Below are positions 11,203-24,530 of a stretch of 64,000 nt of DNA, in pieces. The notes beneath the pieces were generated by a model that saw only the letters and a list, made by a program, of their open reading frames with translations, searched no databases and had not been told where the DNA came from. A program made the position numbers and the translations under genes. This DNA comes from an uncultured Lichenicoccus sp. (GTDB lineage: Bacteria; Pseudomonadota; Alphaproteobacteria; Acetobacterales; Acetobacteraceae): contig CAXMMQ010000001.1 of NCBI GenBank assembly GCA_963693035.2, forward strand, positions 2,457 through 66,456. The letters run 5' to 3'. The first letter of the stretch is position 1; every line of letters begins with the position of its first letter.

Positions 11203-13287
11203 TCACCTGCCCAAATGGACCTTGAGCCAAGCCTCCACCGTATCGTGCCACTGCAGTGAGTTGGCCGGCTTCAGCACCCAGTGGTTCTCGTCGGGAAATA
11301 CCAGCAGCCGGCTCTCGATGCCGCGCCGCTGCAGCGCGTCGAATGCAGCCAGTCCCTGCTCGAGCGGGATGCGATAGTCGCGCCCGCTATGGATGATGAG
11401 CTGCGGCACCCGCCACGTCGCGACACGTTTCGCCGGATTGAACCGCTCATAGCCGGCTGGGTCGTTCCAGGGCGTATGGCCCGGGCCGCCATGTTCCCAT
11501 TCTGCGAACCACAGCTCCTCGGTGGAGAACCCCATCATGCGGTCGTCGAACACGCCGTCATGGGTCACCAGGCAGCGCCAGGGCTGCGACCAGTTGCCGG
11601 CGATCCAGTTCACCATGTAGCCGCCATAGCTGGCGCCCAGCGCACAGGCGCGGCTGCCGTCGAGCCAGTCGAACTGCGCCAGCGCCGCCTTCCAGCCGAG
11701 CTGCAGGTCGATGAGCGGCCGGTCGCCCCAGTGGTTCGAGATCGCATCGGTGAAGGCCTGGCCGTAGCCGGTCGAGCCGTGGAAATCGATCATCACAACG
11801 CCGTAGCCGAGCCCCGCGTAGAATTGCGGGTTCCAGCGATAGCTCCATCCGTCGCCGAACGATCCCTGCGGGCCGCCATGGATCAGGAACGCCACCGGAT
11901 ATCTGTGCCCGGGCTGCAGGCCGGCCGGCTGTACAACGTAGCCATGCACCGTCTCGTGGTTCCAGCCGGTGAACGCGAACTGCCGGAACGGCTGCATCGT
12001 GAGGCCGGCAAGCTGCGCCGCACCGACATGGGTGAGCTGTTCGGGGGCGCCGCCGGGGAGCAGGCGCCAGAGCTGCGCCGGGCTGTCGAGCGCATCGCGG
12101 AGATAGGTGAGGCCATGCGCAACGTCGCGGACGTCGGTGACATGGCCGTCGCCGGTGAGCGGCGTCACCCGGCCACTCTGCACGTCGAGGGCGAACAGCC
12201 GCAGCTGACCGACATCCTCGGCGGTGACATCCAGTGTCCGGCCATCGGGCGACCAACTCAGGCTGGACACCGAGCGGTCCCAGCCGGGATCGATCTCGCG
12301 CGTGGCGCGGGTGACGAGATCCATCACCATCACCGCGAAGCGGTCGGCCTCGAAGCCCGGGCGCTTCTGCGCGCGCCAGGCCAGCGTGTGTCCGTCTGGC
12401 GAGACCTTCGGCTCGGCATCCCAGGCGAGGTTGGAGCCCGTGAGGTCCACGGGCGCCCGATGGCCGCCGACCGGCACGCTGTAGATGTCGAAGTTGGTGC
12501 TCCAGGGCTCGCTGCGGCCGGCGTTGCGTGCCGAGAAGAACACCGTGCCGCCGTCCGGGCTCAAGGTGAAGTCGGCATCGTCGCCGAACGGCTTGGTCGG
12601 GCAGTCGGCGTCGAAGCCGGGCATCAGCGGCACCGCGGGCTTCGACGCCTGTCCGGCGGCGTCGAGCACGAGCGAGAACAGGTGGTTGCGCGTGCCGTCC
12701 GCCCATTCGTCCCAGTGCCGGACGAACAACCGGTCGAACACCATGCCGCTGGCCTTGGCCGCATGGCGCGCATCCAGGCGGGCACGGGTCGCGTCCGGCG
12801 CCTCGGCATCCGGGAACACCGCGAGCGAGACCACCAGTCGGTGCCCGTCGGGCGACACCGCAAAGGCCTGCACGTCGACTGGCAGATGCGTGACCTCGAT
12901 CGCCGCCGCATGGCCCGGGGCGGCGCGCCAGACCTGCGCCGTGCCGCCGTGCCGGCTGGACAGGAAGTACAGCACACGGCCGTCCGGCGACCAGCGCGGG
13001 CTGCTGGCATCGCCCGGCAGTTCGACCGGCCTTGTAGCCGGATGAGCGAGGTCGAGGAGTGCCACTGCGTGCCGGGCGCGGTTGTGGGGCAGGTCGGTGT
13101 GACGGATCTCGAGCGCGGCGGCGTGGCCGTCCGGGGCGATCTGCGCGTCCGACAGCCGGTCCAGGGTGACCAGGTCGCGCGCGGTGAACGGGTGCTGGGT
13201 CAGGCGCGCCTGGGCAGGCGTCATGGCGGCCATGGCGGCCCACAGGGCGAAAAGAGCAGCAGGGAGGCGATAGCGGCGTGTCGTCAT
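11203..13287 (-). CDS. Secreted S9 family peptidase (dipeptidyl/acylaminoacyl peptidase) with beta-propeller
   Basis: Signal peptide; PD40-like SPDG repeats; IHGGPQ, GASYGG nucleophile, DYRIP and DENHW. Confidence 0.92.
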   Translation of the reverse strand: MTTRRYRLPAALFALWAAMAAMTPAQARLTQHPFTARDLVTLDRLSDAQIAPDGHAAALEIRHTDLPHNRARHAVALLDLAHPATRPVELPGDASSPRWSPDGRVLYFLSSRHGGTAQVWRAAPGHAAAIEVTHLPVDVQAFAVSPDGHRLVVSLAVFPDAEAPDATRARLDARHAAKASGMVFDRLFVRHWDEWADGTRNHLFSLVLDAAGQASKPAVPLMPGFDADCPTKPFGDDADFTLSPDGGTVFFSARNAGRSEPWSTNFDIYSVPVGGHRAPVDLTGSNLAWDAEPKVSPDGHTLAWRAQKRPGFEADRFAVMVMDLVTRATREIDPGWDRSVSSLSWSPDGRTLDVTAEDVGQLRLFALDVQSGRVTPLTGDGHVTDVRDVAHGLTYLRDALDSPAQLWRLLPGGAPEQLTHVGAAQLAGLTMQPFRQFAFTGWNHETVHGYVVQPAGLQPGHRYPVAFLIHGGPQGSFGDGWSYRWNPQFYAGLGYGVVMIDFHGSTGYGQAFTDAISNHWGDRPLIDLQLGWKAALAQFDWLDGSRACALGASYGGYMVNWIAGNWSQPWRCLVTHDGVFDDRMMGFSTEELWFAEWEHGGPGHTPWNDPAGYERFNPAKRVATWRVPQLIIHSGRDYRIPLEQGLAAFDALQRRGIESRLLVFPDENHWVLKPANSLQWHDTVEAWLKVHLGR

Positions 13288-13409
13288 GCCGGACGCCTTA
13301 CCCGACCGGCGACGGCGCGCCAAATCCTCGAGCGGACGACCTGTCGACGGCAGGCCAAGCTTCACCGGAACTTCACATAGCGGGATGGCTCCAGAAACTA
13401 AGACAGGGC

Positions 13410-22245: not shown

Positions 22246-22289
22246 GGATCGGGCCGGATCAGCGCCGGGGGTGGAGAGGGCCGGCCTGC

Positions 22290-24530
22290 ATGGCCGGAGC
22301 GACGATGGCGATACTTCGACGATGGATGCATGGCGGCAGGCGCGCCATCCTGCTGCGCGCGGGCGTGTGTTGCGTGACGCTGCCGGCGCTTCGGGCTCAA
22401 GCGCAGACCGCGCCGGCCGCAGAGCAGGTTTTGGTCACGGGCGCGCGCGCCGATGCGGTGCCGGTCACGGCCTCCGAGTTCGCGCCCAGCCAGCCCAGCA
22501 TCGACGAGACCGAGCCGACCAGCACGGTGAATGCGGAAACCCTGAAGAAGATCCTGGTGCCGACTGCCGACTACAACGAGGTGGTAGCGCTGACGCCGAG
22601 CGCGATGGATGTCAGCCCAGTAGGACCGGGACTGCAGCAGGATTTCGGGCAGAGCATACGCGGGCTGCAATATACAGAGTTCAGCGTCCTGTTCGACGGC
22701 GTTCCGGTGCCCGGGTTTCCGTTCAACCTCGCGCCGCAGCCAGGCGCCTATTTCTTCTCGCGCGATTTCGGCAGCGTCACGGTCAACCGCGGCCCGGGAC
22801 CGGCTTCCGCGATCGGGGCTGCGACCTTCGGCGGGTCGGTCGACCTGCGGTCGCCGAACGTCTCGGGCGCGCCACAGCTCGAGACCTACGGCACCTTCGG
22901 CAGCTTCGGCACCAAGCTGTTCGGCGCCGAGGAGTCGTCGGGCTCGCTCGCCGATCTCGGCGGTGCCAAGCTCCTGCTCGACCTCACGCGCGAGGAAAGC
23001 GGCGGCGCGCAGTCGGGCTCGTCGACCGAGCGGCGCAACCTGTTCCTGAAATACGAGCAGCCGATCGGGCGCAGCACGACGCTGACCGCCGTCGTCAACC
23101 TCGACAACGACAACACCAAGACCCCGTTCGGCGCCACGCTTGCCAACATGAATATCTACGGCCGCAACTACAGCCTGAACTCGGATCCGACCTCGCTGGA
23201 CTACAGCGGCTACAACCGCGACTACTACACGACGGATTTCGAGTATCTCGAGCTGAAGTCCGATCTCGGTGCAGGCTGGAGCATCGACAACCACGCCTAT
23301 ACGACGGCGTACTACCAGCGCCACTTCCTCACCAACGATCCGGGCGGCAGCTCGCCCAACTTCTCCGGCACGATCTATCTCGACGGCGTCGCCACCCCTG
23401 TCAGCAACGATGTGCAGGGCACGGCCACCCAGCTGGACTACCGCAACTGGGGCGACGTGTTCCGGCTGAGCAAGGCCACGACATACGGCGATCTCAATCT
23501 CGGCGTCTGGGCGGAGCGCGAGGGCTTCACCACCAACGAGGTGCCGGTCGACTTCACCCGGTCCCGGCAGGCGTACTCCCCCAATCCCGGCTATCCGCAA
23601 TATCTCGCGAAGTATTTCGCATCCCTGACTACGGCGCAGCCCTACGCCGAGTATGTCTGGCGTCCGGCGAGCAACGTGACCATCACCGGCGGGGTGAAAT
23701 ACAGCTCCGTCACGCGCTACCTCAACGGCCCCGTCACCCTGACCGGTGCACCGGCCAACGATCATGCGACCTTCAACAAGCCGTTGCCGTCATTCGATGC
23801 GAACTGGCGCGTGCAGCCGGACTGGTCGTTGTTCGCGCAGGCCGCGGAGGGTTTCCTGACGCCCCAGCTCAACCTGTTCTCGACCACGACGCCTGCCTCG
23901 GTGCAACCCTCCACCACCTGGAGCTACCAGGTCGGCACGGTGTTCCAGCGCCGCTGGCTCAAGCTCGGAGTCGATGCCTACGACGTCGAATTCCACAACT
24001 ATATTTCCAGCAACAGCGTCGCCGGCATCACCACCTACTTCAACCAGGGCGGCGCCACCTTCAAGGGTGTCGAGGTCGAGGCCACGGTGACGCTCGGCCA
24101 CGGCTTTGCCGCCTACGCCAACGGCTCCCTGAACGACAGCAACTACGGCAATAACGGCAACAACCTGGCACAGACGCCGAGGCGCACGGCGACGCTGGCG
24201 TTGCTGTATGACCGCGGCAATGTCCTGCGCGACAAGGACGAGGTATTCGGCAACGTCGTGCTGAAGTCAGTCGGCCCGCAATACGGGCTCGACACGGCGT
24301 TCGAAGGCCGGTTCGACCAGTTCCCGATCAAGTCGTACAACGAGGTCGATCTGAATGCCGGCTACCTGCTGCCGCTGTTCGGCAGCCGCATCCGCACCAA
24401 CGTCAACGTCACCAACCTGTTCGACCACCGCTCGCTGACCGGCTATGACGGGCAGACGCTGGAAGGCCAGGCGCTCTACTGGGTGCAGGCCGGCCGCGGC
24501 ATCTTCTTCTCGGTGGCGGCCTACCTGTAG
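22290..24530 (+). CDS. TonB-dependent receptor (TBDR2), paralog of TBDR1
   Basis: EQVLVTG TonB box. Shares long blocks with TBDR1 (GPGLQQDFGQSIRGLQY, ERRNLFLKY, NRDxYTTDFEY). Start may be 22290, 22308 or 22326. Confidence 0.92.
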   Translation: MAGATMAILRRWMHGGRRAILLRAGVCCVTLPALRAQAQTAPAAEQVLVTGARADAVPVTASEFAPSQPSIDETEPTSTVNAETLKKILVPTADYNEVVALTPSAMDVSPVGPGLQQDFGQSIRGLQYTEFSVLFDGVPVPGFPFNLAPQPGAYFFSRDFGSVTVNRGPGPASAIGAATFGGSVDLRSPNVSGAPQLETYGTFGSFGTKLFGAEESSGSLADLGGAKLLLDLTREESGGAQSGSSTERRNLFLKYEQPIGRSTTLTAVVNLDNDNTKTPFGATLANMNIYGRNYSLNSDPTSLDYSGYNRDYYTTDFEYLELKSDLGAGWSIDNHAYTTAYYQRHFLTNDPGGSSPNFSGTIYLDGVATPVSNDVQGTATQLDYRNWGDVFRLSKATTYGDLNLGVWAEREGFTTNEVPVDFTRSRQAYSPNPGYPQYLAKYFASLTTAQPYAEYVWRPASNVTITGGVKYSSVTRYLNGPVTLTGAPANDHATFNKPLPSFDANWRVQPDWSLFAQAAEGFLTPQLNLFSTTTPASVQPSTTWSYQVGTVFQRRWLKLGVDAYDVEFHNYISSNSVAGITTYFNQGGATFKGVEVEATVTLGHGFAAYANGSLNDSNYGNNGNNLAQTPRRTATLALLYDRGNVLRDKDEVFGNVVLKSVGPQYGLDTAFEGRFDQFPIKSYNEVDLNAGYLLPLFGSRIRTNVNVTNLFDHRSLTGYDGQTLEGQALYWVQAGRGIFFSVAAYL

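Follow-up and report, generated by a model that had tools for sequence, protein, structure and literature searches.

A conserved regulator, receptor, phosphoesterase and sulfotransferase gene set in a lichen-associated bacterium

Other bacteria are known to have operons in which a TonB-dependent receptor (TBDR) gene is combined with a phytase gene. The PfeA/PfeE pathway, in which uptake and hydrolysis are likewise coupled, is induced by the PfeS/PfeR two-component system. In it, a periplasmic esterase frees the iron from the imported ferric siderophore (PMC8001512). A phytase can also be under the control of a two-component system, as is the case for UrpRS (PMC8963506). The gene cluster presented here, located in a 64-kb stretch of DNA (the window), was described in a first-pass annotation as a set of enzymes with no characterised counterpart, in agreement with which no paper on a receptor-phosphoesterase-sulfotransferase module was found. 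The source organism is a lichen-associated bacterium; a comparable gene set occurs in many soil bacteria. The cluster is interpreted below as one regulon on a conserved core of five genes, a reading that, with the whole mechanism proposed for it, is given a probability of about 0.45.

Gene content and conserved core

Genes were called using Pfam and NCBIfam profile searches and inspected translations. The starts of the peptidase, TBDR1 and phosphoesterase genes in the list of open reading frames lay too far upstream and were re-set from the signal peptides. All seven genes of the first-pass annotation are present. Five of these make up the conserved core: an OmpR/PhoB-family response regulator (RR; 20420-21130, plus strand; Response_reg and Trans_reg_C), a histidine kinase with a small loop (HK; 21123-22154, plus strand; HisKA and HATPase_c), the core receptor TBDR2 (22290-24530, plus strand, start possibly at 22305; Plug and barrel), a propeller-phosphoesterase (PropPE; 17418-20198, minus strand) and a sulfotransferase (SULT; 15675-17300, minus strand). 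The core recurs in Acetobacteraceae-like contigs with its gene order shuffled, namely as SULT<-PropPE<-|RR->HK->TBDR in locus L169, as RR->HK->TBDR->PropPE->x->SULT in L168, and as SULT<-|PropPE->RR->HK->TonB->TBDR in L170, while subsets of it are found in L016, L001 and L084. RR orthologs with 60-85% identity adjoin PropPE in L001, L016, L084 and L168-L170, TBDR2 orthologs (51-84% identity) lie inside the module in L168-L170, and a C-terminal TBDR2 remnant is located 3' of the HK gene in L016. The PropPE of L169 is 90% identical to that of the window. With 135 proteins at E<=1e-30, the TBDR2 subfamily is a small one, and contigs of identical size (e.g., 12918, 30535, 53693, 52640, 18829 and 68220 bp) occur among the TBDR2-family and the PropPE/SULT matches. 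Acidobacteria-type loci differ from the Acetobacteraceae-like ones in receptor type and in having a two-component system of the heavy-metal type: SULT->PropPE is combined with a CarboxypepD_reg-type TBDR in 15 loci, with the two-component system embedded. The co-occurrence of RR/HK, TonB receptor, PropPE and SULT in many genomes, with the same repeat (see below), bears out the earlier suggestion of a functional unit as opposed to a chance neighbourhood.

The S9 peptidase, TBDR1, GNAT and OPT genes are lineage-specific add-ons. TBDR1 (13433-15682, plus strand; Plug and TonB_dep_Rec_b-barrel in Pfam) is 50% identical to TBDR2 over 740 amino acids, and the two are thus paralogs, as had been proposed; TBDR1 is absent from its window position in L084 and L169, the loci of the two closest relatives. 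The S9 peptidase (11203-13287, minus strand) has a signal peptide and GASYGG, D and H triad motifs. Its domains (Peptidase_S9, 1.9e-57, and PD40), the GxSxGG motif in its translation and its closest solved structure, 8wt1, suggest a Dpp5-like enzyme of the prolyl-oligopeptidase family, with a score against the Dpp5 model of 423 bits, under the cutoff of 900. It would be a lineage-specific member of the regulon. The only other related locus with this gene is that of Lichenicoccus roseus, where it occupies the third position in the PropPE-SULT operon; even L169 lacks it. The GNAT acetyltransferase gene (24557-25096, plus strand; Acetyltransf_3, 5e-27) starts 27 bp 3' of TBDR2, with which it is probably co-transcribed. 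It was absent in every related locus examined, including L169 and L084, and four unrelated genes are present at its position in L. roseus. Convergent with TBDR2-GNAT is the gene of an OFeT_1/FTR1-type iron (iron/lead) permease (25080-25826, minus strand; PF16955, 30.5 bits, cutoff 26.9). The permease is 77% identical to the product of the gene at the same position 3' of TBDR2 in L169, in front of which a CTGAC repeat is located, and is absent in L. roseus, where TBDR2 is also missing at the locus. It is a possible inner-membrane partner of the module. The stop codon of the OPT oligopeptide transporter gene (25823-27808, minus strand; OPT, 2e-103; TIGR00733, 671 bits) overlaps the permease start. 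The distance of 1.3 kb given for it earlier is correct (1.29 kb from the TBDR2 stop), but the GNAT and permease genes in the gap had been overlooked.

These distributions bear on the reading of the first-pass annotation, in which peptides carrying phosphate or sulfate groups, or metal-peptide chelates, enter through the twin receptors, are trimmed by the S9 peptidase and PropPE and are taken up by OPT, SULT modifying the imported product. In its favour are the S9 peptidase, exported, preceded in the window by a CTGAC site and located in the PropPE-SULT operon of L. roseus, and the nearby OPT gene. However, only RR, HK, TonB receptor, PropPE and SULT co-occur elsewhere: the S9 peptidase is confined to the window and L. 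roseus, missing even where PropPE is 90% identical, and TBDR1 is an extra paralog, so that the system cannot be equated with the seven genes. Other module loci do not contain OPT, which still adjoins cobST (cobT) in the receptor-less locus of L. roseus; hence, no link between OPT and the module is demonstrated, and its membership is doubtful. As S9 peptidase, TBDR1, OPT and GNAT are outside the core, peptide import rests on non-conserved parts, and the core has no peptide-specific component. This reading is considered improbable.

The phosphoesterase-sulfotransferase pair

PropPE contains YVTN repeats, a Sec signal peptide and a PF04185 phosphoesterase domain (36.4 bits, cutoff 23) in which the KENRTYDQ nucleophile motif is invariant. 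A moderately confident model of its C-terminal part (pLDDT 76, TM ~0.4 to the matches) has a fold matching those of AcpA, NPC, PlcN, PlcH and GPE-phosphodiesterase. PropPE is thus predicted to be a Sec-exported propeller fused to an AcpA/phospholipase-C-type phosphoesterase; NCBI labels its homologs 'bifunctional YncE family protein/alkaline phosphatase family protein'. With PropPE and the S9 peptidase both carrying signal peptides, the two exported hydrolases noted before were recovered. SULT consists of TPR repeats and a Sulfotransfer_3 domain (4e-36 in Pfam). No signal peptide was found in its translation, and its PAPS motifs, PRxGTT and R...S, do not vary in alignment A2, in line with the earlier assignment as a cytoplasmic PAPS-dependent transferase. 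Among solved structures, its catalytic domain is closest to TPST2 (E 1e-8), and its TPR part is OGT-like.

SULT and PropPE are a tight genetic pair. PropPE adjoins SULT genes of at least 49% identity in 24 of the 29 informative loci and those below 49% in none of 14; a neighbouring TBDR was seen for 1 of 27 distant SULTs. PropPE without an adjacent SULT or TBDR is found in the close loci L001, L002, L003 and L082 and for all distant homologs, the Steroidobacteraceae locus L082 having TBDR->PropPE alone. The cytoplasmic location of SULT and the finding that no inner-membrane transporter is conserved across module loci argue against sulfation of an imported product. PropPE itself may be the target of SULT, which would mature it at Y172 ('NPNLYNPTSANPGG'), a conserved tyrosine in a loop. 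The residue is present in 34 of 34 SULT-adjacent PropPEs, replaced by F in the Steroidobacteraceae ortholog without SULT, missing from a paralog clade of 41-44% identity and from distant homologs, and retained by four orthologs without SULT pairing, a pattern that is confounded by phylogeny and amounts to about two independent losses. TPST sites typically have an acidic residue next to the tyrosine, which is missing here.

Signalling of the RaxST/RaxX type, in which SULT would sulfate a small secreted peptide that is perceived by the receptor and the two-component system, is suggested by the TPST/RaxST-like catalytic domain and by the Y-x-x-x-SANP that occurs both in the PropPE loop (LYNPTSANP) and in AtPSY1 (DYGDPSANPKHDP), a sulfated peptide of plants. 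However, the acidobacterial PropPEs lack a conserved SANP, no open reading frame for a precursor peptide fits into the 117 bp between SULT and PropPE in the window, and neither a type I secretion system nor a peptidase-ABC exporter is linked to any of the loci, which makes this a very improbable explanation.

The direct repeat and the two-component system

The first-pass annotation had mentioned, without giving its sequence, an upstream motif common to three promoters. CTGAC-N6-CTGAC fits this description: it has exactly three matches in the window (0.18 expected; three or more in 0 of 100 shuffles), all three of them intergenic and one in each intergenic promoter region of the cluster. Site 1 (CTGACCAATTCCTGAC; 13410-13425, minus strand) is located in the divergent S9 peptidase/TBDR1 region, 123 bp 5' of the peptidase ATG and 8 bp 5' of that of TBDR1, site 2 (CTGACGGGAACCTGAC; 20291-20306, plus strand) in the divergent PropPE/RR region, and site 3 (CTGACGGCAGGCTGAC; 22230-22245, plus strand) 5' of TBDR2. 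Counterparts of site 2 were found 5' of PropPE in L001, L016, L081, L084, L168, L169 and L170, and those of site 3 immediately 5' of the receptor gene in the last three of these. Six repeats were present in the 87 loci fetched first (1.52 Mb), four of them just 5' of PropPE; L168-L170 added seven, every one before PropPE, TBDR or OFeT_1. As the distance between several sites and the receptor start codons is just 8-45 bp, with some of these sites reversed, repression or binding in the 5'-UTR fits equally well as activation. Among RNA runs, none was found to contain this sequence.

Neither a Pho box (<=3 mismatches) in the module promoters of the window nor a Fur/Irr box in module promoters was found, so neither P- nor Fe-starvation control is indicated. 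This matters for an explanation as plain phosphate scavenging, in which the cluster is a P-starvation-type organophosphate locus comparable to operons of other bacteria that combine a TBDR with a phytase or phosphatase, the two-component system senses the substrate, and SULT is unrelated or accessory, for instance in making P-free sulfated surrogates. PropPE belongs to the same AcpA/PLC family as PlcH/PlcN and plant NPC4, which are induced by P limitation. L082 with just a receptor and PropPE would suit such a function, as would the Pho-box-like CTGTCAC strings 5' of PropPE in L081 and L082 (CTGTCAG in L086). On the other hand, RR and HK score too low for PhoB/PhoR equivalogs (137 vs 296 bits and 102 vs 334 bits), the two-component system families and the link to OFeT_1 indicate metals, and the strict SULT-PropPE pairing is left unexplained. 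Plain scavenging is, on balance, unlikely.

HK has two transmembrane helices and, in the periplasm, a loop of about 25 amino acids. The acidic loop sequence RLL(L/I)GDE(L/W)PEPWQD is invariant in seven orthologs; the periplasmic loop of PmrB has an ExxE motif. The best NCBIfam matches for RR are PmrA, which ranks first, TctD, RppA and QseB; those for HK are PmrB and the heavy-metal sensor HK family. All of them are below the cutoffs. As both window proteins fall under every NCBIfam equivalog cutoff, the signal is a guess. The acidobacterial two-component system does exceed the NCBIfam heavy-metal RR and HK cutoffs (328 > 279 and 377 > 292.55). A link of the module to metals is also suggested by the OFeT_1 permease gene beside TBDR2 in the window and in L169, by the Fiu-like receptor of L087 and by the TonB gene of L170.

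These matches, the short, acidic, PmrB-like loop and the acidobacterial scores would also suit a defence against metal stress, for which the acidic lichen, moss and peat habitats of these organisms and the UrpRS-phytase system with phosphatase-driven uranium biomineralisation (PMC8963506) offer context and precedent. A PmrAB/CusRS-like system would then sense toxic Fe3+, Al3+ or heavy metal and induce PropPE, which would dephosphorylate the envelope (cf. PmrG and the LPS core) or free metal-precipitating phosphate, while SULT would sulfate an envelope glycan or lipid precursor at the cytoplasmic face, weakly binding sulfate replacing metal-binding phosphate. Against this, the recurrent TonB receptor, the TonB gene of L170 and OFeT_1 are import parts without a role in detoxification, the TPR and TPST-like architecture of SULT suggests a protein or peptide acceptor and not a glycan or lipid, and LPS-modification genes are not linked. 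Defence against metal stress is therefore also rated as unlikely.

Proposed mechanism and comparison with known systems

The best reading is that of a cation- or substrate-sensing regulon for the import of an organophosphate, probably metal-bound, that is dephosphorylated in the periplasm. It builds on gene content and synteny, on paralogy, on domain families and the placement of the motif, and on the conservation patterns of the kinase loop and the tyrosine; from these we infer which signal and substrate are involved, in which direction regulation acts, that the location is periplasmic rather than extracellular, and what SULT targets. HK, which is almost without a periplasmic domain, would sense a periplasmic cation or a metal-bound ligand with its acidic loop (GDE-L/W-PEPWQD). 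Phosphorylated RR would bind the 11-bp-phased direct repeat and thus control the operon to which it belongs as well as PropPE-SULT and the receptor gene(s); in the lineage of the window, the S9 peptidase gene would be a further target. The TonB receptor(s) would carry a large, porin-excluded organophosphate into the periplasm. The organophosphates and metal chelates put forward earlier are still the best guesses for this cargo, either in metal-complexed form, e.g., Fe(III)/Al(III)-phytate, or as a phospholipid- or sphingolipid-derived head group; there was no indication of the host-derived substrate or, in the conserved parts, of the phospho- or sulfopeptides suggested with them. PropPE would cut the phosphoester by means of its Thr nucleophile, releasing phosphate and any bound metal, and the adjacent OFeT_1 permease, where present, could move the freed metal across the inner membrane. 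Cytoplasmic SULT would most likely O-sulfate Y172 in the PropPE loop before Sec export. Such a role would parallel that of the cytoplasmic maturases of exported enzymes of the alkaline phosphatase superfamily.

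The gene cluster and its genomic setting

Genes were called from third-position G+C in combination with Pfam and NCBIfam matches. An S9 peptidase carrying a signal peptide (11203-13287, − strand) is followed by the TonB-dependent receptor TBDR1 (13433-15682, +), a TPR-sulfotransferase lacking a signal peptide (SULT; 15675-17300, −), a YVTN propeller joined to a PF04185 phosphoesterase behind a Sec signal (PropPE; 17418-20198, −), an OmpR-type response regulator (RR; 20420-21130, +), a histidine kinase (HK; 21123-22154, +) and a second receptor, TBDR2, with two candidate starts (22290 or 22305 to 24530, +). 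The first-pass annotation had described a seven-gene cluster with twin receptors here; this observation was correct, as all of the genes were called and TBDR1 and TBDR2 are 50 % identical. Downstream of TBDR2 lies an acetyltransferase gene (GNAT; 24557-25096, +) and, convergent with this pair, a gene that had been missed, encoding an OFeT_1/FTR1-type iron (iron/lead) permease (25080-25826, −). The latter and the adjoining oligopeptide transporter gene OPT (25823-27808, −) look like one operon, because the start of OFeT_1 overlaps the OPT stop.

The window has a G+C content of about 69 % and belongs to a close relative of Lichenicoccus (Acetobacteraceae): its PropPE shows 92 % and 90 % identity to its counterparts in Lichenicoccus sp. 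and L. roseus, respectively. Its flanks are syntenic with those of L. roseus, in cobS-cobT-OPT as well as in aldehyde-oxidase, cytochrome c and DUF892 genes. The cobaltochelatase genes cobT-cobS (27812-30767) adjoin OPT in both, and in the related contig L168 a CobS gene is located about 5 kb from the module; this suggests that the chromosomal neighbourhood is old. In a sequence look-up among sequencing runs, lichen and moss metagenomes were among the DNA runs containing the window sequence, and no RNA runs containing it were found.

A conserved five-gene core and its predicted operator

Several related loci share part of this arrangement. In L. roseus, RR and HK diverge from a PropPE-SULT-S9 peptidase operon; no receptor is present at the locus and four unrelated genes take the place of TBDR2-GNAT-OFeT_1. 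The contig L169 (PropPE 90 %, TBDR2 84 % identical) carries PropPE-SULT divergent from RR-HK-TBDR2, followed by a convergent OFeT_1, and is devoid of the S9 peptidase and TBDR1. The order is RR-HK-TBDR-PropPE-unnamed gene-SULT in L168, SULT divergent from PropPE-RR-HK-TonB-TBDR in L170, SULT divergent from PropPE-RR-HK and a receptor remnant in L016, and PropPE-RR-HK in L001. Other Lichenicoccus-like genomes retain just PropPE-SULT in unrelated surroundings, one of them with a divergent Fiu-like receptor, and a Steroidobacteraceae contig (L082) has TBDR-PropPE. With 135 proteins at E ≤ 1e-30, the TBDR2 subfamily is a small one, and many of its members come from contigs equal in size to those with PropPE or SULT matches. 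A scan of a genome collection with a PropPE alignment listed mostly homologs of 35-40 % identity without synteny; it served as a negative control and as the source of five close loci.

Some of these loci hold additional or incomplete genes. A gene for a TonB protein (TonB_C domain) is located inside the module of L170, between the HK and receptor genes (9190-9891), and in the single locus L168 a 334-amino-acid ORF with faint WD40/propeller-like matches separates PropPE from SULT (13379-14383). Only the C-terminal ~160 amino acids of a TBDR2-like receptor follow the HK gene in L016 (14837-15274), and only a TPR-like SULT fragment of ~130 amino acids lies upstream of PropPE in L001 (9086-9415). 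These remnants suggest that both lineages recently lost parts of the module.

A TonB-dependent receptor gene linked to those of a two-component system and of an exported hydrolase was observed in the window, in L016, L168, L169 and L170, and in the acidobacterial loci L092, L124 and L130, among others. From this recurrence across window-related and acidobacterial loci, the core is taken to consist of RR, HK, TBDR, PropPE and SULT, with SULT-PropPE as the tightest pair, and the S9 peptidase, TBDR1, GNAT and OPT are, judged by gene order, lineage-specific. The import and processing of phospho- or sulfo-peptides, as proposed in the first-pass annotation, rests on these non-conserved genes and was not upheld; its view that the genes are linked and share a motif was borne out.

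The motif proved to be a direct repeat, CTGAC-N6-CTGAC, found on reading the three intergenic regions of the cluster. Its 11-bp phasing is the usual geometry of operators of the OmpR/PhoB family. The 64 kb contain exactly three copies, one in each cluster intergenic region, against 0.18 expected, and none of 100 shuffles reached three. As the pattern was derived from these same three sites, other genomes constitute the independent test. In each of the ~22-kb loci L001, L016, L081 and L084, the sole exact match is located at most 250 bp upstream of PropPE; these four make up 4 of the 6 matches in the first 87 loci fetched (1.52 Mb). L168, L169 and L170 contributed seven further sites, all directly before PropPE, a receptor gene or an OFeT_1 gene. 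In total, 14 sites were found in ~210 kb, all in module promoters, with a background of about one per 700 kb. The shared upstream motif of three promoters noted earlier is thus real, and CTGAC-N6-CTGAC is the predicted, new operator of the five-gene module. Synteny and motif together exclude a chance juxtaposition of the cluster genes. The S9 peptidase is also assigned to the regulon of the window lineage, because of the CTGAC site in the window and its place in the L. roseus operon. Some sites come as close as 8-45 bp to the start codons of receptor genes and occur in either orientation; at these, the regulator may activate or repress. The repeat provides a handle for mapping the regulon across the Acetobacteraceae.

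Other strings were seen near these promoters. 'CATTTCATGGAA(C/T)TGTCTC', which contains TTCATG, precedes TBDR2 in the window (22172-22195) and in L169 (~9120-9145), and 'ATG(G)AA(T/A)G(G)TTCATG' occurs near the CTGAC site upstream of PropPE in L001, L016 and L170; such strings could be promoter elements or the site of a second regulator. Upstream of SULT in the acidobacterial loci no 11-bp-phased operator was found, just a string, CCACGCCAGGTTCGCGCCATG, that is kept around the SULT start codon in L092, L093, L095, L099, L005, L112, L118 and L123. It was rejected as a regulator site, looking instead like conserved coding or translation-initiation sequence.

Two membrane helices of the HK enclose a periplasmic loop of ~25 residues. 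Seven orthologs with an overall identity of only 54-75 % all share the loop sequence RLL(L/I)GDE(L/W)PEPWQD, with its DE-x-PE-xxx-D patch. Acidic periplasmic patches of this sort bring to mind kinases that sense cations, PmrB and PhoQ among them. PmrA is the best NCBIfam model for the window RR (175 bits, cutoff 330), and heavy-metal HK and PmrB models are the best for the HK, below their cutoffs (PmrB, 114 vs 314). PmrAB-type systems have a short loop with an ExxE-type acidic motif and use the PmrA box, a YTTAAK direct repeat, unlike the CTGAC repeat of the window. The window pair also stayed below the cutoffs of the models for heavy-metal systems (TIGR01386/TIGR01387; CusRS/CopRS/CzcRS; RR, 158 vs 279.2; HK, 128 vs 292.55). 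The two-component systems embedded in acidobacterial modules exceed both, with RR and HK scores of 328 and 377 bits for L092 and of 328 and 374 bits for L124. A role in metal-stress defence, by dephosphorylation in the envelope or by phosphate precipitation, would fit these regulator families, but it does not fit the recurrent import parts. One of the genes beside the receptor, OFeT_1, is 77 % identical to the gene at the same place in L169, where it has its own CTGAC-N6-CTGAC site.

PhoB and PhoR models likewise remained below cutoff on the window pair (137 vs 296 and 102 vs 334 bits). The module intergenic regions contain no Pho box (CTGTCAT-N4-CTGTCAT-like, at most 3 mismatches), with two such boxes elsewhere in the window against 2.9 expected, and Fur, Irr and RirA boxes were either not found in the module promoters or no more frequent than background. 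Classical control by phosphate or iron starvation is therefore not indicated by the promoter sequences. Plain phosphate scavenging of the Pho type would suit the enzyme, yet neither the regulators nor the lack of a Pho box agrees with it. The Fur-box-like site that matches best in the whole window (13/19; 53238-53256) lies in the intergenic region that separates the gene of a mechanosensitive channel from that of a GH15 glucoamylase/trehalase-like protein; it probably does not rise above background. Pho-box-like strings are present at ~9850-9900, upstream of PropPE, in L081, L082 and L086 ('TTGTTCATGCAACTGTCAC', 'TTCACATAACTGTCAC' and 'CTGTCAGAATTTGTTCAT'), loci without an adjacent two-component system, and hint at PhoB control of PropPE in these lineages.

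The phosphoesterase and its sulfotransferase partner

The N-terminal half of PropPE is a confident YVTN propeller. Residues 460-926 match PF04185 with 36.4 bits (Pfam cutoff, 23), a family also precomputed for most of the 120 homologs listed. The stretch KENRTYDQ (K487 E488 N489 R490 T491 Y492 D493 Q494) is invariant in 20 sequences and aligns to profile positions 1-32. It contains ENR[ST]xD, the N-terminal motif that carries the Ser/Thr nucleophile in the AcpA/PlcH family, with T491 as the presumptive nucleophile. A model of the C-terminal part (pLDDT 76) gave as best Foldseek matches AcpA (2d1g), the fungal and plant NPC enzymes (8k3g and 8haw), PlcN (9gy2) and PlcH (8yk5 and 9gye), at E values of 6e-8 to 1e-5 and a TM score of only ~0.4; a glycerophosphoethanolamine (GPE) phosphodiesterase was also among the matches. 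The whole-protein model, in which the catalytic half is poor (pLDDT 64), retrieved propellers only, and a search of the PDB with the sequence or profile returned only YVTN propellers and no phosphatase. By profile and model, the C-terminal domain is a very divergent AcpA/PLC-type phosphoesterase with putative phosphomono- or diesterase activity. It shares with the AcpA/NPC/PlcH-PlcN family the score above the Pfam cutoff, the ENR[ST]xD motif with Thr and the same best structural matches, and differs from it in its identity to the structures of ~12-15 % at TM ~0.4, its N-terminal propeller of the seven-blade type, a conserved subfamily-specific insert (residues ~534-569) and a Sec rather than Tat signal. 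At least 6,465 homologs (E ≤ 1e-10) occur in soil, peat, lichen and moss metagenomes under generic annotation; their NCBI name is 'bifunctional YncE family protein/alkaline phosphatase family protein'.

SULT combines an OGT-like TPR array with a Sulfotransfer_3 domain (PF13469, 4e-36), of which TPST2 is the nearest solved relative (E 1.2e-8). Across 23 sequences, its PAPS motifs (5'-PSB and 3'-PB) do not vary at P329, R330, G332, T333, T334, R413 and S421. Its pairing with PropPE was counted in a SULT-seeded metagenome scan, using loci with at least 2.5 kb of downstream sequence and a split at 49 % SULT identity: PropPE is next door to 24 of the 29 SULT homologs at or above this value and to none of the 14 below it. 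In these loci, mostly of the Acidobacteria type, the order is SULT-PropPE. A TonB receptor of acidobacterial type (CarboxypepD_reg + OMP_b-brl_4) adjoins the pair in 15 of them, and a receptor adjoins only 1 of 27 distant SULT loci. Two-component systems are adjacent or embedded, as in SULT-RR-HK-PropPE of L100 and L124.

SULT is predicted to be cytoplasmic, having no signal peptide, and PropPE to be exported by its Sec signal. Among the genes conserved alongside the pair, none encodes an inner-membrane transporter, an exporter, a precursor peptide or a biosynthetic enzyme. So tight a pairing is most simply accounted for if SULT acts on PropPE before export. Sulfation of a signalling peptide like RaxX would be a different use of such an enzyme; against it stands the finding that neither the window nor any of the related loci annotated contains a RaxX-like precursor gene or a RaxABC-type exporter.

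A possible target is Y172 in a Pro/Asn-rich loop of the propeller ('PPANPNLYNPTSANPGG' in the window, 'CGTFYSPSTSYPGG' in Acidobacteria), with PPPANPNLYNPTSANPGG as the candidate acceptor peptide. In a loop alignment, this Tyr is kept in all 34 SULT-adjacent PropPEs. It is replaced by Phe in the SULT-less ortholog of L082 and is missing in a paralog clade (41-44 % identical) and in all distant homologs. The losses that are independent of each other number no more than about two, the Tyr is also retained in four unpaired orthologs, and no acidic residue flanks it. In a global scan, no tyrosine cleanly set the SULT-paired PropPEs apart; only the loop alignment is suggestive. Sulfation of the exported partner by SULT at this Tyr before export is put forward as a tentative proposal.

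Two PropPE paralogs stand side by side or a few kb apart in L003 and L005 (Acidobacteria); the second copy, 41-44 % identical to that of the window, is without the loop Tyr. Residues ~165-182 of the window PropPE (DNA about 19650-19710, − strand), 'NPNLYNPTSANPGG', contain Y-x-x-x-S-A-N-P, which is also present around the sulfotyrosine of the plant peptide AtPSY1, DYGDPSANPKHDP (10.1101/116897). This short resemblance was spotted post hoc and may reflect chance.

Proposed working and comparison with known systems

In the most far-reaching reading, to which a probability of roughly one in five is given, SULT would be a dedicated cytoplasmic maturase that O-sulfates the PropPE loop Tyr before Sec export, a maturation step widespread in soil Acidobacteria and Acetobacteraceae, and receptor and phosphoesterase would form an unrecognised uptake route for metal-bound organic phosphate. 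In the working proposed as most likely, at slightly less than even odds, the kinase loop would sense a periplasmic cation or metal-ligand complex and RR would act at the CTGAC repeats. The receptor would import an organophosphate, probably metal-bound, for cleavage by PropPE, after which the freed phosphate and metal could enter through general systems or OFeT_1. This import-hydrolysis scheme is proposed because the architecture parallels that of PfeA-PfeE, UrpRS-phytase and TBDR-phytase operons.

The component families are all known, as is the logic of receptor, two-component system and periplasmic hydrolase. What is new is the widely distributed five-gene module, its operator and the fact that an exported AcpA/PLC-type enzyme has a TPST-like TPR-sulfotransferase as its obligate partner; word searches of the searchable literature turned up no account of such a module. 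PropPE, a large and so far unstudied family, is here tied to a TonB receptor, a sensor pair with an operator and a tyrosine-sulfotransferase-like partner, which makes it part of a concrete module. The latter could explain how dominant acid-soil bacteria gain access to organic phosphate or to metals bound to it, and parts of it are found in species whose type strains are in culture, e.g., L. roseus. If SULT modifies exported PropPE, the sulfation of protein tyrosines in bacteria would no longer be confined to RaxST/RaxX as its single case but reach well beyond it.

Two other systems were considered and set aside. A CUT/PUL-type carbohydrate utilisation locus was rejected, as no CAZyme or sugar transporter is present in the cluster; glycosidases near L086 and L170 are outside the conserved module. 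The neighbourhoods of TonB-dependent receptors and sulfotransferases with halogenases and dioxygenases (Iyer et al. 2010) are a different system, given these accompanying genes.

SULT shares with TPST2 and RaxST of Xanthomonas the Sulfotransfer_3 domain with its 5'-PSB and 3'-PB PAPS motifs. It differs from them in its large N-terminal TPR array, which resembles the TPR region of OGT, and in being paired with an exported enzyme, with no RaxX-like precursor or RaxABC exporter linked. In AtsA/AtsB-type sulfatase systems with their anaerobic sulfatase-maturating enzyme and in HMW1/HMW1C, a cytoplasmic modifier encoded beside an exported protein acts on it before Sec export. The adjoining genes for a cytoplasmic enzyme and an exported protein are alike here, and the sulfatase, like PropPE, belongs to the alkaline-phosphatase superfamily. 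The chemistry proposed for SULT, O-sulfation of a propeller-loop Tyr, would differ both from N-glycosylation and from the generation of formylglycine at the nucleophile.

Operons of TonB-dependent receptors and phytases are known in other bacteria, where phosphoesterases are genetically tied to outer-membrane receptors, and in Pseudomonas aeruginosa the PfeS/PfeR two-component system controls the PfeA-PfeE pathway. In that pathway, a TonB receptor is combined with a periplasmic hydrolase that breaks imported ferric enterobactin and frees the cargo in the periplasm (PMC8001512). The module follows the same logic, with an exported hydrolase predicted to destroy the ligand of a receptor under a two-component system. 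PfeE, however, is a carboxyl-esterase whose substrate is a catecholate trilactone, and PropPE an alkaline-phosphatase-superfamily phosphoesterase with a YVTN propeller; moreover, the Pfe pathway is without a sulfotransferase, and the HK loop of the module has only ~25 residues. The window receptors scored 74 and 99 bits against a siderophore-receptor model (cutoff 223.5). A PfeE/IroE-type esterase working on a ferric catecholate siderophore was rejected on the basis of these scores and of the PF04185/AP-superfamily assignment of PropPE. In Caulobacter, the UrpRS two-component system controls an exported phytase (PMC8963506). The module resembles this and the TBDR-phytase operons in placing an exported phosphoesterase under a dedicated two-component system and in its link between organic phosphate and metal. 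The enzymes there are β-propeller or histidine-acid phytases, whereas that of the module is an AcpA/PLC-type PF04185 protein with a YVTN propeller; the regulator family and DNA motif are also unlike, and the obligate TPR-sulfotransferase partner is new to the module.
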